64,000 bases of DNA from Verrucomicrobiales bacterium (GTDB lineage: Bacteria > Verrucomicrobiota > Verrucomicrobiia > Limisphaerales > UBA1100). Of the stretch, positions 23,143 to 32,656 are shown in pieces. The notes below the pieces were generated by a model. It ran no database searches. It was not told where the DNA came from and worked only from the letters and a program-made list of their open reading frames with translations. The DNA is taken from the NCBI GenBank assembly GCA_038139415.1, contig JAYOSV010000019.1, positions 1,467 through 65,466 of the forward strand, in the 5' to 3' direction. Positions within the stretch are counted from its first letter, which is position 1; every line of letters begins with the position of its first letter. Made by a program: the position numbers and the translations under genes.

Positions 23143-23918
23143 AACCAAAGCTCTTTATATGTCAGCGCGCCCAGGATACCGCCGGTGATGGGGCCGGCGA
23201 CGGGGATCCATGCGTAGCGCCAGTTGGAATCCCCCTTGCCGGCGATAGGCAGGAGCGCATGGACAATGCGCGGGCCAAGGTCGCGCGCGGGATTGATGGC
23301 ATAGCCGGTGGGGCCGCCGAGGCCCATGCCGATGACAAACACCAGCAGGCCTGCCAGTAGCGGTTTGAGGCTGTACGCCCATTGGTTTTGGATGACCTCG
23401 GCTTTCTTTTGGTGGACTACACCGATGGATTCGCGCACCTCCGGGGTTAGCGAGTCCGCGGAATAAATGGCGAGCAGGCCAAGCACGAGGACGAACGTGC
23501 CCATGGTTTCCGTGAGAAAATTGGCACCGGGCCGGTCAATGGCCGGGCCGGTGGAAAAGACGCCGAGCTTGGTTTTGGGATCGTCGGTGGCTTCCCAGTG
23601 CGGAAGAAAGGCCAGCCAAACGGCTATTGCACCGAGGATGGCTCCAGTAAACTGTCCGGCAATGTAGGCGGGCGCCTTGGCTGATTCCAATTCGCCGATG
23701 CTCACAAGCCCGAGCGTCACGGCGGGGTTGAGGTGGGCTCCGGAAAAATTGAAAACCGCATACGCGCCCATCGCCACGGCCATGCCCCAGCCGGCGGTGG
23801 TGAGAATCCAGCCCGAATCATGGCCGGTGGTTTTTTTTAGGGACACATTGGCATTCACACTTCCTCCTAATAGGATCAACAGAAAAGTGCCGATTAATTC
23901 CGCAGTAAAAATACTCAC
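23139..23918 (-). CDS. glpF: Glycerol uptake facilitator (MIP family)
   Basis: [10 protein letters not shown] and [16 protein letters not shown] boxes; overlaps the glpK start. Confidence 0.93.
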
Positions 23919-24017
23919 GGGCGCAGTGTAGGTTTAGGGCGAGTGACGAAAAGGAAAGATTGGTAACAGCTATGTGAACGCGTAATAATACTTACTATGT
24001 CTACACTTCTTTTTGAC

Positions 24018-26216
24018 TTAAAGCGTCTTTTTTTTAAGCAATTCAATAATTTGCTCATGTTCGCCATCATCGTATTTTGCCAATCCTTGCCAAGCCAATT
24101 CCAACGGAGTTTCTCCATCAGAGTTAGGGTGGATGGGATTGGCGCCAAAATGAATTAGGGTTTTTACTGGGGTTAACCTGCCTCGAAAAACCCATTTGTG
24201 AAGGGCTGTTTCCCAGTTTTTATTCATGGTATCCACCGGTAGTTCGGCTTCAATAAGGACTTCCATTACTGAAGAATCATCACAATTGTGTAGAGCTGAG
24301 TTCCCTGAATCATCACAGGCCATCACGTCTGCTCCTCGTTCGATAAGAAGACTGGCGATCGACGCCCTTTGGCAGCCGTGTAGGATCGGGTACCCGTGCT
24401 TGTCTTTGGCTTTTAGGTTTAGTTCGCCGCTATTTATTAAATCAAAAATGCGGTGACGGTCTGTGCCCATACGGATTTCATGGAACTCTTCCTCGGTGGG
24501 GGTAAGGCCTGATATAGGCTCGGGTTCCAGAGTTTCCGTTTGCGTGGGGGCAATCCGAGCGACCTGATCTGCTTCGACTTCGCGATCCTTAACTACTTTT
24601 AAACTGACGGTACAGCCCGCAGCTTCAAGATCGGTCTTAATATCCTCGGCAATCGCCGGATTATAGCCTTGCAAAAGTTGGTCCCGATCCGGCTTGAATT
24701 TTACTGCTTCGAGCACCTCGAAGGTGTTCAGGTTTGGCTTAAGCCGTCGCATGATTTGGGTAGCCTCATAAGTGTCTATGGGTAGTTCCTCAATAATAAC
24801 ACGTGTACCGGATTTCCATTGAACGGCAGGGGTAACGGGGGTGAGTGTTGTGGAAGCTACATCCGGTAATGTAGGTGGCAGTAATGGAAGTTCTGTTTGT
24901 GTGGGGTTGATAAGTTCCTGCAGGTTTTTTATGCGAACACGTTCAATGGCGTATTCTTCTTCAGTGTGATAGGGGCTCACAATGATTCGTTCCGCCGTGA
25001 TTTCTAACGAGTTCGGTTCAAAGAAAATGAGACCTTCTTCACCATTGTTCCTCGTGTAGATCAGTTTCTGACCTGAGGGATCGCCGATAATCTTTCGAGT
25101 CGGCTCGATGACAGGAGGAAGCTCTTCTTCCTCGGTTATTAAGGGGGCCGAGAGGACATCCGGATTGAGTATTCTCTCCCGTAGAATGGAAAATCGGGCT
25201 GTTGTGCCTGTGGCTTGGAGCGCTACATGTGAATCGGTGAGTTCTATCGAACCCGGATCAAAATAAATGACGCCACGATTGCCATTATTTCGGGTGTACA
25301 GCAATTCAGTCCCTGTGGAGTTCCCCACGATAAAGGCCTCAGGTTCCAAAACGGGCGGATTGGATTCTGCAGGGGAATGTTGTTCCTCAAGTGTTGGAGG
25401 TGATGGCTCTATTTCAGGCTCCTGACTCCTTAATACGTAACCACAATTCCAGCAGCGATATTCGCCTTCCCAGAGGCGGACGTTGCTGTCGTTGCAACTA
25501 GGGCAGGAATCTTTGTCTGGGGCTTGTAACGTCGGCTGTTGTGGTTCCGGGTCCTGAGCTTCAGGGTTTACGGTCGACGTGGTTTGAAAACCCAATACTT
25601 CGGGATTGCTAATCCGATCAAAATTAAGATTTTTACCTGCTTTAACTTTTAACAGCAGAACGTTGTTTCTAAATGAAAGACTAATCGAGTCAGGTCTAAC
25701 GCGTGTCTCTTTATTTTCTCCTTTAGAATTAGAATAACGAACGGTTACAGGCTCGTTGGAACGAGGTTGAATCCATTGTGTAATGTTCGTGTCAGGGTTT
25801 TTCCATTGATAGCTTGCGAGAACTGAATTGATCTCCTTGGCATTTGTTTGTGCAGTGATTTCCTCATCCGTATCTTTGCCAAACACCTTATGGACGATAT
25901 ACCCCGCAATGTTTCCGATAATGGACCACCCAATTATAGGGAAAATTGTGAGACTTTTATCTTCGATCATAGCCTCACGGTGCAACCATACACCGCAGAG
26001 GAATCCCAGGGCGGTACACATACTTTTTAGGTTGTCTCTTTTTGAAAAGGCTCTAGGAATATTCTGGAAAACCCAGCCCGCAATTCCTCCTGCAAACGCC
26101 CATCCAACTACTGACCCGAATGCCCAATCAGTTGAACTTCCTCCCATTACATCTGCATAACGGCCGCCGAACAATAGGCCATAAATAAAACCGATAAATG
26201 CCAGTCCAATGATCAT
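24018..26216 (-). CDS. Multidomain membrane protein: N-terminal TM helices, three WYL-like repeats, Zn ribbon, L7/L12-CTD-like domain, C-terminal ankyrin repeats
   Basis: Hydrophobic aa 1-110; VRYSNSKG..RVRP...FDRISNP, LLYTRNNG...DP...RERILNP and LIYTRNNG...EP...RVRIKN repeats; CPSC..CWNCGY; ...AEDIKTDLEAAGCTVSLK; ankyrin GNSALH, ETALH, GETPLELA. Confidence 0.75.
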   Translation of the reverse strand: MIIGLAFIGFIYGLLFGGRYADVMGGSSTDWAFGSVVGWAFAGGIAGWVFQNIPRAFSKRDNLKSMCTALGFLCGVWLHREAMIEDKSLTIFPIIGWSIIGNIAGYIVHKVFGKDTDEEITAQTNAKEINSVLASYQWKNPDTNITQWIQPRSNEPVTVRYSNSKGENKETRVRPDSISLSFRNNVLLLKVKAGKNLNFDRISNPEVLGFQTTSTVNPEAQDPEPQQPTLQAPDKDSCPSCNDSNVRLWEGEYRCWNCGYVLRSQEPEIEPSPPTLEEQHSPAESNPPVLEPEAFIVGNSTGTELLYTRNNGNRGVIYFDPGSIELTDSHVALQATGTTARFSILRERILNPDVLSAPLITEEEELPPVIEPTRKIIGDPSGQKLIYTRNNGEEGLIFFEPNSLEITAERIIVSPYHTEEEYAIERVRIKNLQELINPTQTELPLLPPTLPDVASTTLTPVTPAVQWKSGTRVIIEELPIDTYEATQIMRRLKPNLNTFEVLEAVKFKPDRDQLLQGYNPAIAEDIKTDLEAAGCTVSLKVVKDREVEADQVARIAPTQTETLEPEPISGLTPTEEEFHEIRMGTDRHRIFDLINSGELNLKAKDKHGYPILHGCQRASIASLLIERGADVMACDDSGNSALHNCDDSSVMEVLIEAELPVDTMNKNWETALHKWVFRGRLTPVKTLIHFGANPIHPNSDGETPLELAWQGLAKYDDGEHEQIIELLKKKTL

Positions 26217-26284
26217 CTGGATACTCTGGGATAATGCCTGATCAATTTCAGTATGTTAACTAAAAACAAAGTTGTTTTGGGCTG

Positions 26285-26965
26285 TTAATGCCGGCTGATT
26301 TGGCATTCGGCCGCTTCCAGTTTCTGCTGGAACGATTGGGCGGTGGCTTCTGGGAGATTCTCCGCGATGGTCTGTGGAGCATGTTTCAACATATCGTAAA
26401 TATCGAATGTACTCAGATCGGGCCTGATCTCCGCGATGATTTTCTTGATCCGATAATAGTTTGGGCCGGGATTGTTCAGCGTGATTGTATAGCCTTCATT
26501 TTTGAGGCTACGAGCCGGTTTGGGTGAACTCTCTCCCTCGATTTCATCAGCCTCGGGAAAAGGGAGGGGCTCAGGGATCGAATCCGCTTCAGTGTATCCG
26601 CACTCCCAGCAGCGCATTTCGCCATTCCATTCGCGCAGGAAGCCATCGCATGAAGGGCAACTTGCTTCATTTTCATTCAGGAAAGATTCTAATGTTGGCG
26701 GGACTGCAGCTTCCGATAATTGGTTGATTACTTTGGTTTTGCCTCCATCCATCATCGATTGAATTTTTTCGCCAATGCTTTGGCCGGCCCATCGAAAGAA
26801 GAGGATCGGGGCAACAAAGCCCATTACAATGATCGTGGGTTCTTGTTCTTTATTCCCGTTTTCGACTAAGGCTACCGCTACGATTAGTCCGCAGATGAAG
26901 CCCACGATGGACCCAATAAAGGTAAAAACTCTCTCGATAATAGGCTTTTTTTTAGAATCATCCAT
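26285..26965 (-). CDS. Two-TM membrane protein with Zn ribbon and C-terminal L7/L12-CTD-like domain
   Basis: Two hydrophobic helices; CPSCDG..CWECGY; YTITLNNPGPN...APQTIAENLPEATAQSFQQKLEAAECQI. Confidence 0.75.
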   Translation of the reverse strand: MDDSKKKPIIERVFTFIGSIVGFICGLIVAVALVENGNKEQEPTIIVMGFVAPILFFRWAGQSIGEKIQSMMDGGKTKVINQLSEAAVPPTLESFLNENEASCPSCDGFLREWNGEMRCWECGYTEADSIPEPLPFPEADEIEGESSPKPARSLKNEGYTITLNNPGPNYYRIKKIIAEIRPDLSTFDIYDMLKHAPQTIAENLPEATAQSFQQKLEAAECQISRH

Positions 26966-26982
26966 TCTATGGATTGGTCTCT

Positions 26983-28065
26983 CTATTTAATCTCCACGGT
27001 GCACCCAGCATCCTCTAGTCGTTTCTTGAATTGAGCAGCTGCATCCGGCTCGAGATTATCTGCGATGGTGTTCGGGAAATCACGCATCAATTGATAGGTA
27101 TCGAATGTCCCCAATTCCGGCCGGATTTCTTGGATGATTTTAGTGGCGTCATAGGTGCCGAGGCCGCAGCTGGTGATGATGAGAGAGACCTGGCCGGAAG
27201 TATTCGGTGCCGGTTCCTCGGCGACGGGTTGGGGCTCGTGCGGGGTGGCTGGTTCCTGCCCCGGAGTTTTTTCAAAGAGCGCTTCGGGATTGCCAATCCG
27301 GGTGCGTTTGAGCGTGATGTACTGAAAGGTCGGCGAGACGCGGACGCGGACAAAATCGCCCTTGTCATCCACCACGCCGGAAATGATTTTGAATTCCTTC
27401 TGCACCCCCTGCCAGTTGGTGTAGTGGATGATGGAGGTATCCGAAGTAGTGGTTTGAACCGGCAGCGGTTCCTTAGGTAACTGCGCCGGAGCCGCCACGC
27501 CCTTGAGGATGCGCGTCTTTGAACGGTTCAGTGAAATGCGCTTAAAGGTAGGTGCCACCCGTACGGAGAAGTGATTGCCTTTTCTCCTGATGGATTTGGG
27601 ATCACCAATGAATTGTTTCAGGTCGCCGGCGTAGTTGAGGTATTCGATGACAATTGTTTTGTCCGAAGAAGGCGGTTGATACGTTTTCTTTTTTTGGGGT
27701 GAGTTATCTGGGGAATCAGGAGTATTACTGGATGCTGCGGTTTGGTCGTTTTGGGTTATATCTACTTTAGCACCGGCCTGTGCCAGTATTTGTCTAGCCT
27801 CAAAAGCTTCTTCTTTGCTGACACCACTTAATAGTGTGCTGGGAGTTGATTCCACAAACTCTTTGGCCTCCTTTAGTCCAAATGAGGGTATTACAGCTCT
27901 TACTGCCTTGATGGATTGAACTTTATTCCCTCCATCTCCAATCAAAATAACTTCGTATGGGCCACTTTGTTTTTGGATGCGAGGAGCCTTTCGTTGTTGG
28001 CGAGGTGATGGTGGATTGGTTGCCTCGCCAAAGATCGATTTTTTTAATTCATCAAATAATCCCAT
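26983..28065 (-). CDS. Protein with two L7/L12-CTD-like domains flanking two WYL-like repeats
   Basis: YEVILIGDGGNKVQSIKAVRAV..FGLKEAKEFVESTP...GVSKEEA...LAQAGAKV is close to the bL12 CTD; IEYLNYAG.. and IHYTNWQG..RVSPTFQYITLKRTRI repeats; C-terminal ..AAQFKKRLEDAGCTVEIK. Confidence 0.8.
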   Translation of the reverse strand: MGLFDELKKSIFGEATNPPSPRQQRKAPRIQKQSGPYEVILIGDGGNKVQSIKAVRAVIPSFGLKEAKEFVESTPSTLLSGVSKEEAFEARQILAQAGAKVDITQNDQTAASSNTPDSPDNSPQKKKTYQPPSSDKTIVIEYLNYAGDLKQFIGDPKSIRRKGNHFSVRVAPTFKRISLNRSKTRILKGVAAPAQLPKEPLPVQTTTSDTSIIHYTNWQGVQKEFKIISGVVDDKGDFVRVRVSPTFQYITLKRTRIGNPEALFEKTPGQEPATPHEPQPVAEEPAPNTSGQVSLIITSCGLGTYDATKIIQEIRPELGTFDTYQLMRDFPNTIADNLEPDAAAQFKKRLEDAGCTVEIK

Positions 28066-28081
28066 AATGGTGCCTTTTTAT

Positions 28082-28397
28082 TTTGATCACGCAACAGCAA
28101 AGGCGACTTAGGTCTTGGACCGACTCCGATCTGGAGTCGTTCCATCGTCTCCAGATCGGAGTCGGTGGATTGCCCTGATTTACCGTAGGCTGGAGCGTTA
28201 ATTCGCTTCAGCGTCCATGATACATCATTGGAGTTCCACCGTCCCATGATGGATCATGGACGATGTCACTAATGCCGGTTAACACTTAGGCACTCTCCCT
28301 CACGAGTGTTGTTTGCCTGTGCTTCCCGGTACAGAGGGAATCGAGCCCGGTATGTTTCCGGGCCGATGGCAGCCGCCTCTGCTGCTGCGCGATCAAA
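28082..28397 (-). ncRNA. Putative RT-associated structured ncRNA (retron msr/msd-like layout) overlapping the RT 3' end
   Basis: 27-nt arms 28371-28397 and 28082-28108 pair fully on the minus strand (23 Watson-Crick + 4 G-U); internal hairpins at 28341-28366, 28323-28340, 28212-28262, 28189-28212 and 28119-28166. Confidence 0.7.
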
Positions 28398-29749
28398 TTT
28401 TTGTTTCGCATTTGGAAAAAGGACGATTCCAAATGGCCATGCTTTAAGAGTCGGCGTCGATGTTGCAGGCTAGGCAAGCCCATAGCCCGGAGACGGCCAA
28501 ATGGCAGTTTTCGGAAATTGCCTTTTTTATGACCATTCCTAAAAGTGACAGAAAGAATTTCTTCGGCTAACCAGCGATCTAATTCTCGGAGCTGTTTTTC
28601 GTCATTCACATGCTTTAGGTAGTAATCAATAACCGCCACGGATCGAAACGTCTCGTTGACCACATCCCGAGCAATATCGACTGCCAATTGCGCCCGGCCA
28701 TTTGCATGCCTTTGTTTACTAAATCGATGGCGTTTCCTGCGGAAAGCGTTCCGAAAGAGATTGCGAATCTTCCGTCCTTTTTCTCGAGCCATTCCCACTG
28801 ACTGGTCAGCCCGAAATTCCAGGCCGAGATGCTGGAATCGGTCGACCGCTTCAAACGCGCCATCCGTGTGGCCGGCGGTTTGTGGGAAGAAAAAATTGCG
28901 GTGAGCTTTGGGCTTGCTTTGTACGCGCAGGCAATCAAAGGCGTCTCCCATTAGTTCGGCTGCTTGCAGTGTGTTGGATCGGTCCGTCGAGAAGGCGAGG
29001 AGATCATCGGCGTACCGGAAATATTTCAGGCCCTTGATTTTGGTCAGTTGCCGGTCAAGCGGGGTTAGGTAGAGGTTGGCAAAGAAACAGGCGATTGCTG
29101 TTCCGAACGCGATCCCTCGGTTAGCGGTGTTTACGGTGAGGCCGTCTTCCTGCAGTACTTCGAACTGGATGCGTTGGCGGAGCAATTTAAATAGGTAATC
29201 ATTCGGCTCGACCCAATCGGCCAGCAGAGTGAGTAGACGTTCGTGATTGATACTCGGGAAATAATCGGCCACATCGCGTTTCACGAAATATAACGGCCGT
29301 GGTAATTGGCGGATGTGCTGCTCGACCCGGTGCTGGCAGCTATCTACCCCGTGGCTACCCATGCGATAAGCAAAACAGCTTTGCTCATACACACTGTGAA
29401 AATATTTGGTGAGCTCCCGGTAGAGCATGAGATCCACAATCCGCTCCTCCCACGGATAGAGATAAATGGTGCGGTCCTTGCCGTTGGTGTTGAAGTGCAG
29501 CTCAATGCCGGGCCGGTAAACAAATTCTCCCCGTGCCAGTTGCCGATGCAGTTGGGCGGTGTTTTGTAGGGAATCGGCCGCGAAATCGTATAGCGTGCGT
29601 CCGTCGTGCGAGCGGCCCAGCGCCTTGCGCCAGGTAAAGAGCGGCTTGGAGTAGGCGCGGATCACTGCCTGATGCAGGGCTAGCTCCGAATAAATTCGGT
29701 CAAACGTGGCCTTTGGGTGTGTGGCCGGTAATGCACAAGACAGATTCAT
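28286..29749 (-). CDS. Stand-alone reverse transcriptase, group II intron-like (not part of an intron)
   Basis: RT motifs: GKDRTIYLYPWEERIV, SCFAYR, VKRDVADYFPSINHERL, GIAFGTAIACFFANLYLTPLD, YFRYADD, FQHLGLEF; basic thumb-like C-terminus; no HNH or Cas1 domain seen. Confidence 0.92.
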   Translation of the reverse strand: MNLSCALPATHPKATFDRIYSELALHQAVIRAYSKPLFTWRKALGRSHDGRTLYDFAADSLQNTAQLHRQLARGEFVYRPGIELHFNTNGKDRTIYLYPWEERIVDLMLYRELTKYFHSVYEQSCFAYRMGSHGVDSCQHRVEQHIRQLPRPLYFVKRDVADYFPSINHERLLTLLADWVEPNDYLFKLLRQRIQFEVLQEDGLTVNTANRGIAFGTAIACFFANLYLTPLDRQLTKIKGLKYFRYADDLLAFSTDRSNTLQAAELMGDAFDCLRVQSKPKAHRNFFFPQTAGHTDGAFEAVDRFQHLGLEFRADQSVGMAREKGRKIRNLFRNAFRRKRHRFSKQRHANGRAQLAVDIARDVVNETFRSVAVIDYYLKHVNDEKQLRELDRWLAEEILSVTFRNGHKKGNFRKLPFGRLRAMGLPSLQHRRRLLKHGHLESSFFQMRNKNLIAQQQRRLPSARKHTGLDSLCTGKHRQTTLVRESA

Positions 29750-29874
29750 CCCGTTTCACGGGCGCGCAGGGTGTAAGCAGATTACCCGTTGGCGGGCAAA
29801 GGGAAATCCTGAGTTGTTCACCAGAAATTGACGATCCCTCATCGGCCCCGTATCATTGGCCCGTGCCAGAAACT

Positions 29875-30804
29875 ATGCCCATTGATGCCTTGTCCCGCGA
29901 GATTGCCGAGCTGAAAGAGCGGCTGAACGCGGTGATTCTTGTGCATAACTATCAGGTGCCGGAGATTCAGGATATTGGCGATTACGTGGGAGATTCGCTG
30001 GGGCTCTCGCAGCAGGCGGCTGAAACCGATGCGGATGTGATCGTGTTCTGCGGCGTGCATTTCATGGCCGAGACCGCCAAGATTCTGTCGCCCAACAAGA
30101 CGGTGATTCTGCCCGATCGCGATGCCGGCTGTTCACTGGAGGAAAGCTGTCCGCCCGACAAACTACGCGAATTGCAGGCGACCAACCCGAATTTTTTTAC
30201 GGTCACCTATATTAACTGCAGTGCCGAAGTAAAGGCGCTCTCCGATGTCATTTGCACTAGCGGCAATGCGAAGAAAATTGTGGAGCAATGTCCGCCGGAC
30301 AAGGATCTCCTCTTTGTGCCGGACGAAAATCTCGGGCAATGGGTGATGGAACAAACCGGCCGGCCGATGACCCTCTGGCAAGGCAACTGTTATGTGCACG
30401 TGGAGTGGACACACGCCGCGATCACCAAGATCCGAGACGAATATCCCGACGCCCCGCTGGTCGCCCATCCCGAATGCACGAAGGCTGTTCAGATCCTTGC
30501 GGACGAAGTCTGCTCCACTGAAAAGATGGTGCACTACTGCCGCACCGTGGAAAGTGATTCGGTGATCATTGCCACCGAGGCCGGCATGTTGCACCGGTTG
30601 CAAAAAGAGTGCCCTGATAAAAAATTCATTCCTGCCCCGACTGAAAAATGCGCCTGCAACGAGTGTCACTTCATGAAAATGAACACGCTCGAAAAAGTCC
30701 GCGACTGCATGCGCGATTTGACGCCGCAAGTGGAGCTCTCGCCCGAGATCCTCGAGCGCGCCAAACTCCCCATCGAGCGCATGCTCGAATGGACAGCGCG
30801 GTAG
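29875..30804 (+). CDS. nadA: Quinolinate synthase
   Basis: ILVHNYQ, GDSLGLS, FCGVHFMAETAKIL, AGCSL, YINCSA, AHPEC, C..MKMNTL; start ATG 29875 (or GTG 29863). Confidence 0.95.
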   Translation: MPIDALSREIAELKERLNAVILVHNYQVPEIQDIGDYVGDSLGLSQQAAETDADVIVFCGVHFMAETAKILSPNKTVILPDRDAGCSLEESCPPDKLRELQATNPNFFTVTYINCSAEVKALSDVICTSGNAKKIVEQCPPDKDLLFVPDENLGQWVMEQTGRPMTLWQGNCYVHVEWTHAAITKIRDEYPDAPLVAHPECTKAVQILADEVCSTEKMVHYCRTVESDSVIIATEAGMLHRLQKECPDKKFIPAPTEKCACNECHFMKMNTLEKVRDCMRDLTPQVELSPEILERAKLPIERMLEWTAR

Positions 30805-31675: not shown

Positions 31676-32656
31676 TCAACCAAACCAGCCGGATTTTGCG
31701 CCGCTGCGTTTTTGGAGCAGTTCGCTGCGGGAGGCTTCGAGAGTGAGAATCATTTCGTCGTAGTCGCGGAAGCGCTTTTCCGGATCTTTATTCATAGCGC
31801 GGAGGATGGCGCCTTCCGTATTGGCACTGATGTCGCGGACGATTTTGCGCGGTGGGGTGATACGTGTTTTCACGTGCGCCCAAACGGTTTCCTCAACGGT
31901 GTTGCCGTTGAAGGGGACCTGACCCGTGAGGGCGTGGTAGAGGGTGGCGCCCAGGGAATACATGTCTGACCGGAAATCCTGCACGCCGCGGGCCACGCGT
32001 TCGGGGGCGATATAAAAAGGGGTGCCGACTAGACCTTCGGCGGAACGGGGTTCATTGATTTTGCGGGCGATGCCGAAGTCGGTTAGCTTGGGTTCGCCAT
32101 CGACGTTGTAGAGAATGTTGTCGGGCTTGAGGTCGAGATGGATGAGATCTTTTTTGCGGACTAGCTCTAGGGCGCCGGCGATTTTGATGCCGGCATCAAG
32201 CACATAGAGTTCATCCACCCGCCCGTTTTTCTGGATCAACCCATCGAGGTCCCCGCGGTCGGCTACTTCCATGACTAGGTATTTGTAACCTTTGAATTGG
32301 CCGTAGTTGTAGACCTGCACGATGTTGGTGTGGTTCAGCGAAGCCTGATATTGGGCTTCGCGGAAAAAACCGGCCATGGCGTTGGTGTCGCCGGTGAATT
32401 CCGGTTGCATCAGCTTGACGGCTACGTCGCGATCTAGAATCTCGTCGTGGGCGCGATAGACTGTGGCCATGCCGCCTGAACCACACACCGCGCGCAGTTC
32501 AAACTGATCCAGCTTCACGGGGGTCATCACCGCGTGGCCGCAATTACTGCAGTTGGAATGCTGAAACATGCCCAGATTAGCCGGAATAAACGTACTCGTG
32601 CCACAGCGTTCGCATGGTACGCGTTTCACAGCTCGATTGGGGGGCGGAGTGCTCAT
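31676..32656 (-). CDS. Hanks-type Ser/Thr protein kinase with N-terminal Zn ribbon
   Basis: GSGGMATVY, VAVK, HLDLKPDN, DFG, GTPFYIAPE, SDMYSLG; CERC..CSNC. Confidence 0.9.
   Translation of the reverse strand: MSTPPPNRAVKRVPCERCGTSTFIPANLGMFQHSNCSNCGHAVMTPVKLDQFELRAVCGSGGMATVYRAHDEILDRDVAVKLMQPEFTGDTNAMAGFFREAQYQASLNHTNIVQVYNYGQFKGYKYLVMEVADRGDLDGLIQKNGRVDELYVLDAGIKIAGALELVRKKDLIHLDLKPDNILYNVDGEPKLTDFGIARKINEPRSAEGLVGTPFYIAPERVARGVQDFRSDMYSLGATLYHALTGQVPFNGNTVEETVWAHVKTRITPPRKIVRDISANTEGAILRAMNKDPEKRFRDYDEMILTLEASRSELLQKRSGAKSGWFG

Follow-up and report, generated by a model that had tools for sequence, protein, structure and literature searches.

The window analysed here is a 64,000-nucleotide stretch of the genome of a Verrucomicrobiales bacterium (assembly GCA_038139415.1, contig JAYOSV010000019.1, positions 1,467 to 65,466 of the forward strand). 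It contains a block of four minus-strand genes, consisting of a reverse transcriptase (RT) gene followed by three genes that we designate A, B and C, and a structured noncoding RNA (ncRNA) element that spans the 3' end of the RT gene (Table 1). An earlier sequence-only reading of this DNA had proposed that the RT, the RNA and the downstream genes form one unit, and had pointed to the neighbourhoods of RT homologues as the place where the element and the partner genes might prove to be lacking. Examination of those neighbourhoods revealed that both are kept, which favours a unit: of the 74 loci where an RT homologue (identity down to 45%) could be tested for the element, all 74 have it, and a gene encoding a new beta-rich domain (beta-domain) adjoined the RT at 69 of 69. 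The three parts, RT, RNA and beta-domain protein, co-occur almost without exception. They constitute a unit of RT, ncRNA and accessory protein of the UG/Abi lineage, a three-part combination that is undescribed in the literature searched.

When the open reading frames (ORFs) were read again, the coordinates of the block, the YADD motif, the length of the RT and the spacings between parts that had been claimed for it all proved exact. The element has its 5' end at 28397, which is 109 nucleotides (nt) or about 37 codons ahead of the stop codon of the RT. The ATG of gene A, at 28065, follows 16 nt past the 3' arm of the element (element end 28082); by ORF coordinates, the gap between genes A and B is 17 nt and that between genes B and C is 68 nt. 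The G+C fraction is 0.43-0.56 within the block, compared with 0.55-0.62 in its flanks, where the genes, their names recognised from the translations alone, are presumably glpF, glpK and nadA. A promoter and terminator scan of positions 23800-30000 returned sites no more numerous than those in shuffled sequence.

Table 1. Coordinates of the RT block and of the parts of its RNA element, in window positions
Feature	Position	Strand	Description
RT	28286-29749	-	ORF call; 487 residues, active site FRYADDLL (YADD)
Structured ncRNA element	28082-28397	-	316 nt, overlaps last ~37 RT codons
P1 closing stem (26 bp), 5' arm	28371-28396	-	within RT coding tail
P1 closing stem, 3' arm	28083-28108	-	100% identical in close relatives whose hairpin regions diverged
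P2 hairpin	28340-28367	-	equivalent helix covaries (44-sequence alignment, helix 2)
Pseudoknot 5' strand UCCCUC	28334-28339	-	pairs with GAGGGA at 28296-28301
P3, most conserved stem (GGGAAGCA...)	28275-28329	-	from helices 4-6 of the 44-sequence alignment and the window-clade fold
Hairpin A	28216-28258	-	long hypervariable stem, conserved loop GACGGUGGAAC
Hairpin B	28119-28166	-	18-bp perfect Watson-Crick stem, conserved loop ACGAUGGAACG
Gene A	26983-28065	-	360 residues; MGLFD start, L12 C-terminal domain 38-103, beta-domains 137-183 and 213-260, C-terminal L12-like domain
Gene B	26285-26965	-	226 residues; hydrophobic N-terminal segments, CxxC...CxxC zinc ribbon, weak L12-like C-terminal domain
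Gene C	24018-26216	-	732 residues; 4 hydrophobic N-terminal segments, zinc ribbon 238-264, ankyrin repeats about 590-730

The folded element of about 316 nt overlapping some 37 RT codons, as first described, held up against shuffled controls. Positions 28066-28420 (minus strand) gave a minimum free energy (MFE) of -169.1 kcal/mol, compared with a mean of -101.8 (standard deviation 5.0) for shuffles of the same sequence (z -13.57; 0 of 100 shuffles folded as well). No Rfam family matched positions 23500-30500 at E ≤ 1. The closing stem, P1, is rich in G-U pairs and the fold therefore forms only on RNA of the RT strand; its 5' arm is directly followed by a conserved unpaired GCC (28368-28370). 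The loop of the inner hairpin of P3 (28295-28301) provides the 3' strand of the pseudoknot, which, read by eye, changes within the window's clade from CCCUC/GAGGG to CCCUU/AAGGG in three loci (L002, L040 and L049). Hairpin B is the counterpart of the last hairpin (P4) of the shorter elements found elsewhere in the family. When 16 sequences of the window's clade were aligned, the consensus had 88 pairs, of which 19 show compensatory changes.

Conservation of the element was assessed across 86 sources, namely 80 loci from metagenomes, 5 from genomes and the window itself. The anchor motif GLPSLxHRxR was present in 79 of these and was followed by at least 400 nt in 74, which were taken as testable. 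MFE folding located the long closing helix in 71 of the 74, starting 54-70 nt past the motif, and the other 3 were recovered with a covariance model, R1, which was built from 44 short elements only, with the window's clade left out. Aligned with MAFFT, these 44 non-redundant short elements (155-226 nt) share the invariant stretches AAGCAG, GU..GA, CUGU, AU.GAA and CG.U, and RNAalifold predicted 46 pairs, 38 of them with compensatory changes. A pseudoknot was spotted by eye as UCUCUC facing GAGAGA, with the variants UCCCUU/AAGGGA, UUCCUC/GAGGAA, UUUCUC/GAGAAA and UUUCCC/GGGAAA. With the pseudoknot included, 95.6% of the 2234 cells of the full structure were paired; shuffling gave 76.3%, with 0 of 500 shuffles reaching the observed value, and sliding the partners gave 42-53%. 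Both sides had changed in 42 of 52 pairs. The pseudoknot helix itself (helix 3 of the 44-sequence alignment) was 98.9% paired, with 4 of its 6 pairs covarying.

The covariance model also links the short elements to the longer form in the window. R1 matched other long-form loci as well as the window, where its match spans 28229-28371 (41.5 bits, E 8.7e-8); when the 3.2-Mb genome of the window was searched, the window's element was the sole match (E 1.3e-6). Because a model made from short forms matches it, the form found in the window's clade (313-334 nt) is one and the same RNA as the short form, enlarged by a further long hairpin and a linker. Selection on the RNA could further be separated from selection on the overlapping RT. 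The sequence GGYYGYCA at the end of P1 is carried by 57 of 65 non-redundant elements and is translated as RRLP in 23 and as E/G-T-A/V-A-R in 34; since it is read in two different RT frames, its conservation lies at the level of RNA and not of protein. The RT stop codon falls within the element in 61 of the 65 non-redundant cases. Between the window and loci L044-L047, nucleotide identity is 73-74% in the RT coding sequence, 85-87% in the 5' core of the RNA and 90-95% in its 3' tail. The RNA structure is under strong selection.

The partner gene could be sought at the 69 loci with at least 650 nt past the RT stop codon. At 65 of these, a same-strand beta-domain ORF starts no more than 700 nt after the RT stop, and 3 more have one with an overlapping ORF call. 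At the remaining locus no small partner follows the element, and the gene immediately upstream of the RT (L094:4791-6959, plus strand) instead joins three beta-domains to a Hanks-type Ser/Thr kinase and a double zinc ribbon. Where its start could be placed (51 of 65 cases), the partner begins 13-127 nt past P1, with a median of 22. The usual partner is a protein of about 166 residues (160-200) that has MGxxD at its N-terminus and contains a C4 zinc ribbon, a beta-rich domain (IxYxNFxG...VAPTGxRIxLxRxRIxN) and a short C-terminal motif (ERxVLxYHxxxGTTSPLYExxRxKYPxW). The family includes at least 475 database proteins, all unnamed. Scans of the small partner returned no Pfam match beyond weak zinc-ribbon hits, no NCBIfam, PADLOC or PHROG family and no sequence relative in the PDB.

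The claim that three partner genes accompany the RT was upheld in part: the beta-domain partner is conserved across the family, while modules of the L12-like, membrane and ankyrin kinds occur in this Verrucomicrobiales lineage only. A hidden Markov model (HMM) of the beta-domain, built without Verrucomicrobiales sequences, recognised both beta-domains of gene A (2.8e-19 and 6e-11), and hhalign aligned the small partners with the gene A family at 98.8% probability. Gene A matched Ribosomal_L12 (PF00542) over two stretches (3.2e-27; 95.1 bits against a cut-off of 25.9) and TIGR00855 at 80.4 bits, just under its cut-off of 84.4. Gene B scored 20.5 bits on Ribosomal_L12, under the cut-off of 25.9, and the beta-domain HMM found no domain in it. 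In gene C, three weak beta-domains were detected (156-192, 311-352 and 392-435; whole-protein E 1.4e-7), together with Ank_4 (1.2e-9; 38.6 bits against 22.7) and Ank_2 (30.0 against 27.3); its L12 score of 15.6 bits is below the cut-off. The membrane segments of genes B and C are predicted ones. Across Verrucomicrobiales partners an L12-like end is found in all, and membrane segments and a zinc ribbon at the start in some. Judged by this domain content, genes A to C are a lineage-specific elaboration of the partner.

The L12 domain at residues 38-103 of gene A (window 27757-27954, minus strand) is present in the forms of 360-385 residues (window, L036, L038, L045, L046 and L050) and missing from forms of 301 residues (L001-L003, L039 and L042) whose RTs are 94-95% identical, which indicates a recent gain or loss. 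We considered whether the C-terminal helical motif of the small partner resembles an L12 domain, and rejected this when hhalign aligned the motif to a linker within gene A instead. A search for longer, fused partner forms returned none, which is weak evidence, since Verrucomicrobiales forms of 265-456 residues exist. The repeats had originally been described as WYL-like. No WYL match (PF13280) was obtained for genes A to C at E ≤ 0.1, for 8 small partners at E ≤ 1 or for 10 isolated beta-domains at E ≤ 10, and PDB profile searches returned nothing relevant, so sequence lends the description no support; an Atlas feature search that ranked a WYL cluster fourth, at 0.83, is a lead only.

We then assigned the RT by profile scores. 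Pfam identified RVT_1 alone (1.3e-15). The best PADLOC model was RT_UG26 (125.2 bits, E 6.7e-37, positions 67-390 of 398; no curated cut-off shown), followed by a generic RT model, a CRISPR-associated RT, Drt9 (90.7 bits), UG17 (90.4) and UG4 (86.9), and at lower scores by Drt3a (61.6), RT_II-A (42.7) and RT_I-B (35.7). None of the NCBIfam models reached its cut-off: the best, the group II RT/maturase TIGR04416, aligned over positions 20-350 of 353 with 90.8 bits against a cut-off of 300, and retron_St85_RT scored 58.8 bits against 235. The RT had been called group-II-like, a label that these scores do not sustain. Ten remoter representatives (25-48% identity) scored 94.7-134.7 bits on UG26 or UG17 alike, P0148 being best on UG17 with 134.7 bits. 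Because the UG26 and UG17 scores are similar and nothing reached an NCBIfam cut-off, the RT fits no named group clearly; its scores place it in the UG26/UG17 corner of the Class 2 UG/Abi RTs. The motif residues and YADD are invariant across 32 homologues, including D248, D249, Y376 and Y377, and the active site is intact. The core is conserved to about residue 445 (SSFF), and the tail past about residue 450 is read through the RNA element.

Within the element, the hairpins nearest the 3' arm vary far more than their surroundings. Across loci whose RTs share 94-97% identity, the stem of hairpin A occurs in three unrelated sequences around one common loop, and that of hairpin B in two sequences. 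Between L002 and L040, identity is 96.2% in the RT coding sequence, 98.5% in the ncRNA core, 57.3% in the hairpin region and 100% in the 3' tail. In the short elements, too, the last hairpin combines the loop CUGAAG with a perfectly paired 11-bp stem whose sequence changes. G-U pairs made up 19 of 558 pairs in this last-hairpin class (35 distinct hairpins), 126 of 1042 in P1 and 208 of 2429 in the other helices. In the window's own hairpin A, two substitutions in the 3' arm break pairs that are intact in L036, L038, L005 and L049. A spacer-like origin of the stems was tried and rejected: exact arms of 23 and 24 nt had no match in IMG/VR, and the hairpin A arm, with up to 3 mismatches allowed, recurred in the window's genome only as its own opposite arm, a check that covers exact or near-exact matches only.

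The family is sizeable and patchily distributed. A word-indexed search with the RT gave 1001 proteins at E ≤ 1e-10 among 8000 scored, with identities of 49-96% among the 120 matches listed; among 50%-identity representatives, which were searched exhaustively, 76 reached E ≤ 1e-30 and 700 reached E ≤ 1e-10. The source names of the RTs point to Planctomycetota and Verrucomicrobiales, and those of the partners to Acidobacteriota-type metagenome-assembled genomes, Dormibacteria and Methylomirabilota. In a sample of the phylum, the window's genome alone of 401 held the RT family, the other 27 matches being other kinds of RT at no more than 33% identity; the family was present in 3 of 201 genomes of the order and in 1 of 3 other genomes of the family-level taxon. 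Five more Verrucomicrobiales species genomes carry the RT at 94-95%. IMG/VR contained 7 RT relatives at 33-37% identity, on contigs of 56-364 kb. Besides the nadA-glpK setting, which is taken up below, soil-derived loci have a second fixed context, in which a ComM-like Mg-chelatase lies upstream and the downstream side is occupied by a ClC channel, MarR and GNAT; other loci adjoin an acyl-CoA synthetase, LacZ, RpoD, an Fe-S protein or a DUF3857 protein. An empty-site comparison with two RT-less genomes of the same taxonomic family (G436 and G561) showed other genes beside nadA, and glpF was not found in either.

At least part of this stretch was contained in 20 of 24 listed public sequencing runs, 6 of them RNA; four RNA runs were compared, as contigs. 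In run X17, a 270-nt contig covers 28109-28375, nearly the inside of P1, at a word depth of 27.3, compared with 2-2.2 for gene A contigs. The X17 and X19 contigs both end at 28109-28112, the latter with a 9-letter loose end. In X15 and X16, parts of the RT and gene A are present at depths of 2-6 and the element is uncovered; absence from contigs is no evidence of absence. As contigs give no ends, strand or level, these data are a weak hint of a stable processed RNA from the element.

We next compared the unit with described systems. No named system combining the RT, the 3' RNA and the partner was found in PADLOC, Rfam or the literature, in keeping with the earlier remark that the combination was not recognisable as one. 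The literature search, whose scope did not extend to most subscription journals or to the PMC9226505 supplements, yielded no description of an RT combined with such a partner and a 3' RNA of this kind; an earlier listing under UG26 or unclassified RTs is possible. UG26 is described as a Class 2 group of 35 members, 9 of them beside a Vsr-like endonuclease, with no ncRNA or zinc-ribbon partner described in the portion of the source available (PMC9226505). The present unit resembles UG26 in its top RT score and in having a stand-alone RT without extra known domains, and differs from it in the universal 3' ncRNA and the beta-domain partner. No Vsr-like endonuclease was seen among the genes scanned beside the RT, a feature that is occasional and not obligatory in UG26. 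The unit shows the general pattern of Class 2 UG/Abi systems, an unfused RT (RVT_1 only) and, as is frequent among them, a conserved ncRNA.

Among the individual Class 2 systems, DRT10 (UG17) consists, in the accessible parts of its descriptions, of an RT, an ncRNA and a SLATT protein and produces telomerase-like tandem-repeat cDNA (complementary DNA) (10.1101/2025.10.16.682844; 10.64898/2026.04.29.721553). It shares with the present unit a Class 2 RT, an obligatory structured ncRNA, a single accessory protein and a template region that is poorly conserved in sequence. Its ncRNA, however, lies upstream of SLATT and measures 137 nt, whereas the RNA described here follows and overlaps the RT, is 155-334 nt long and is pseudoknotted, and the partner comes from another, unnamed family; SLATT matched neither genes A to C (Pfam, PADLOC) nor 8 small partners. 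DRT9 (UG28) has an upstream ncRNA with a universally conserved poly-U and makes protein-primed poly-dA with no partner protein needed, priming being from C-terminal tyrosines, as far as the available text of PMC12483538 describes it. The RTs are related (Drt9, 90.7 bits) and both have conserved C-terminal tyrosines, but the element here is downstream, and CGUUU, found in most of the 44 short elements, is absent from the window's clade. DRT3 combines UG3 and UG8, two Class 1 RTs, with a 3'-end ncRNA bearing a CACACA-type motif, according to the part of PMC9226505 available. An ncRNA downstream of an RT gene is common to DRT3 and the present unit; DRT3 differs in having two RTs, the Drt3a score here was 61.6 bits, and the CACACA-type motif was not seen.

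Retron RNAs are laid out with a closing inverted repeat, conserved stem-loops on the 5' side and a long hypervariable perfect hairpin beside the 3' arm. The RNA described here shares this topology and a conserved unpaired G right after the 5' arm, and an accessory protein stands beside the RT in both. The differences are that the RT is outside the retron clade (RT_II-A 42.7 bits; retron_St85 58.8 against 235) and that the RNA lies downstream and not upstream. The WYL-associated, type XI-like retrons are presented, in the accessible text, as a separate RT clade restricted to Bacteroidota, with upstream RNAs (PMC13712802). Group II introns resemble the unit in their RT-plus-thumb layout, TIGR04416 being aligned nearly full length; they differ in the low score on that model (90.8 bits against 300), in the lack of an intron RNA by Rfam and in the single copy.

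The reading that we favour, and regard as somewhat probable, is that the RT, its 3' ncRNA and the beta-domain partner are a conserved unit in which the RT would copy its own RNA into cDNA and the partner would read out the result, most likely in phage defence or stress. In DRT2, DRT9 and DRT10, the RT uses the ncRNA as both scaffold and template, as reported in the accessible parts of the respective papers (PMC12483538; 10.1101/2025.10.16.682844; 10.64898/2026.04.29.721553). By analogy, the RT of the present unit would bind the RNA element as scaffold and template and make cDNA, and the beta-domain partner would bind the RT-RNA particle or its DNA product and relay a signal to an output. In the Verrucomicrobiales lineage, triplication of the partner would have been accompanied by fusion to L12 C-terminal, membrane and ankyrin modules, and in one other lineage it is fused to a Ser/Thr kinase; these fusions may represent exchangeable outputs. 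The role would be phage defence or a related stress response. We lean slightly towards the hypervariable perfect hairpin or hairpins beside the 3' arm as the part that is copied, giving a hairpin cDNA, a retron-like model that would agree with the layout of the RNA. Stems that must also pair as a DNA copy would avoid G-U pairs, and hairpin reverse transcription therefore fits the low G-U content of these stems, a fit that falls short of proof.

Several results weigh against parts of this reading. Synthesis of cDNA by the unit is extrapolated from DRT2, DRT9 and DRT10, and the characterised Class 2 relatives copy short loops, not hairpins. The Fisher p values for the G-U depletion (8.5e-10 and 1.2e-5) are overstated, given related sequences and MFE folds. 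In X19 the contigs at 28112-28287 (depth 7.4) and 28321-28441 (6.0) place the element at about the depth of the RT contig (6.3), and contig depth is in any case a poor measure of expression. Family scans recognised no catalytic or toxic domain in the small partner. The closest competing account, which we think unlikely but take seriously, follows DRT9 and DRT10: the RNA would be mainly a scaffold from which a short loop is copied repeatedly, starting from a protein primer, to give a homopolymer or tandem repeats, with the hairpins serving as structural or boundary elements. Candidate loops for this are J3/4 (UUAUNGAAG) and J4/1 (CGUUU). The nearest characterised relatives by HMM are indeed Drt9 and UG17 (90.7 and 90.4 bits), whose ncRNAs, in the available text, combine a large central stem, smaller stem-loops and a template loop (10.1101/2025.10.16.682844), and the invariant Y376 and Y377 lie adjacent in the C-terminal region of the RT. 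CG(U)U is nearly invariant past the last hairpin in the 44 sequences; the window's clade, however, has GGUCCAAGACC and UUAGUGACAUCG in place of CGUUU and UUAUNGAAG, and no consistent A-B-A' repeat was apparent by eye. This account also leaves stems that are hypervariable and yet nearly free of G-U pairs unexplained, and SLATT, which defines DRT10, was not found. Further from the favoured reading is the idea that the element acts solely in cis, within its own mRNA (as a 3' stabiliser, attenuator or translational coupler), with the RT acting on other templates or on none, which we consider quite improbable. The position of the RT stop codon inside the element (61 of 65) and the median of 22 nt from P1 to the partner start would suit a coupler, and Abi-type RTs make DNA without a template (PMC12483538, in the part available). 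A pseudoknotted RNA of 155-334 nt with invariant unpaired nucleotides and five covarying helices is nevertheless more than a coupler needs, its core is conserved above the RT coding sequence, and the interior of P1 is all that is covered by one RNA contig whose depth is some 12 times that of coding contigs nearby. A decayed mobile retroelement, either a group II intron remnant or a retrotransposon recognising the 3' end of its own RNA, seems to us scarcely credible: among NCBIfam models the group II RT/maturase matches best, with nearly the full model aligned (20-350 of 353), and the RNA does sit at the 3' end of the RT message, but the score is 90.8 bits against 300, no Rfam family appears at E ≤ 1, and one copy per genome in fixed synteny beside a conserved, unrelated partner is at odds with mobility.

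A defence role is plausible, and uncertain because the flanking genes are housekeeping genes. The order nadA - RT - RNA - partner genes - glpF - glpK is retained at RT identities of 60-66% (L057, L058, L045 and L005). Ordinary genes made up 9 of 10 sampled neighbours, the tenth being zeta-toxin-like, and no defence-island setting was seen; the family was absent from 72,556 plasmid and 50,697 phage records. These observations count against phage defence and would suit an RT-RNA particle that has been domesticated and maintained by vertical descent for a function in the cell, perhaps L12-mediated stress signalling to translation or DNA repair, a possibility that we judge improbable overall. The C-terminal domains of ribosomal L12 recruit translational GTPases, and a bona fide domain of this kind in gene A (95.1 bits) and the kinase fusion in one lineage would accord with such a role, as would the housekeeping neighbourhoods in several lineages, the second syntenic block of the soil-derived loci and the single copy in the window's genome. 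On the other hand, the unit shows signs that recall conflict systems: its spread is patchy (3 of 201 genomes of the order, 1 of 3 of the family, 1 of 401 of the phylum), its G+C content is below that of the flanks, partner architectures turn over rapidly and even nearly identical strains differ in their hypervariable hairpins. Large viral contigs also carry RT relatives, at 33-37% identity.

In its most specific form, which we regard as doubtful, the favoured reading would describe an RT-ribonucleoprotein family in Acidobacteriota-, Planctomycetota-, Verrucomicrobiota- and Methylomirabilota-type genomes, so far undescribed, in which a UG26-like RT copies a hypervariable hairpin of a retron-shaped, pseudoknotted RNA borne by the 3' end of the RT message, and a new beta-rich domain that senses nucleic acids reads the product and is wired to exchangeable L12-mimic, Ser/Thr kinase and membrane/ankyrin outputs. 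If this were true, it would represent RT-based signalling that acts on translation and is chromosomal rather than placed in mobile defence islands, and a second, independent origin of the retron design within the lineage that gave DRT10. UG/Abi RT-ncRNA systems are diverse in their chemistry, with gene assembly in DRT2, poly-dA in DRT9 and telomerase-like repeats in DRT10. The same lineage has been proposed, in the available text of one source, to have given rise to telomerase (10.1101/2025.10.16.682844). The unit differs from its UG/Abi relatives in an RNA that lies on the RT 3' end and is large, pseudoknotted and retron-shaped, and in a partner without a name, Pfam model or solved relative, and it occurs mostly in uncultured environmental phyla at stable chromosomal positions. 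Because its accessory features differ throughout, it is a compact candidate (about 2.2 kb) for a further mode of bacterial reverse transcription. The covariation-supported RNA model can be used for annotating such loci, and the natural fusions to L12 C-terminal, kinase, membrane and ankyrin modules suggest outputs that can be tested.

Some additional observations were made on related and neighbouring loci. The RT relatives on viral contigs were considered as carriers of the partner and rejected, the small ORFs adjacent to them being non-homologous (hhalign probability 0.2). On four of these contigs (L120, L121, L123 and L125), one or two tandem ORFs of 127-187 residues just upstream of the RT relative belong to a common unnamed family (…RGxVIEADHAR…FxKIITINxENI…). 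At L125:3880-4779 (minus strand), the R1 model matched weakly three times in tandem (23-29 bits, E 5.5e-5 to 1.6e-3), in the opposite orientation to the RT relative and overlapping the small upstream ORF; these matches are possibly spurious. On a 354-kb IMG/VR contig, a ClpS adaptor gene (L119:6374-6685, plus strand; Pfam ClpS 80.6 bits) directly follows an RT relative (33%), which may be coincidence; ClpS and the L12 C-terminal domain have similar folds. In genome G471, of the same order, a 411-residue ORF (L117:1489-2724, plus strand) has an RT-like start (52% identity over residues 3-245) and ends with the C-terminal motif of the small partner (…RFHRRRGTTSPLCQQIKAKYPGL). It is probably a decayed copy in which a deletion fused the RT N-terminus to the end of the partner, or else an assembly artefact. 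In the window itself, a Ser/Thr-kinase-like ORF of 326 residues with an N-terminal double CxxC (31676-32656, minus strand) is found on the far side of nadA, some 2 kb away from the RT. It is without a beta-domain and non-syntenic in other loci; by clustering it groups with the L094 kinases, among them the one fused to beta-domains.

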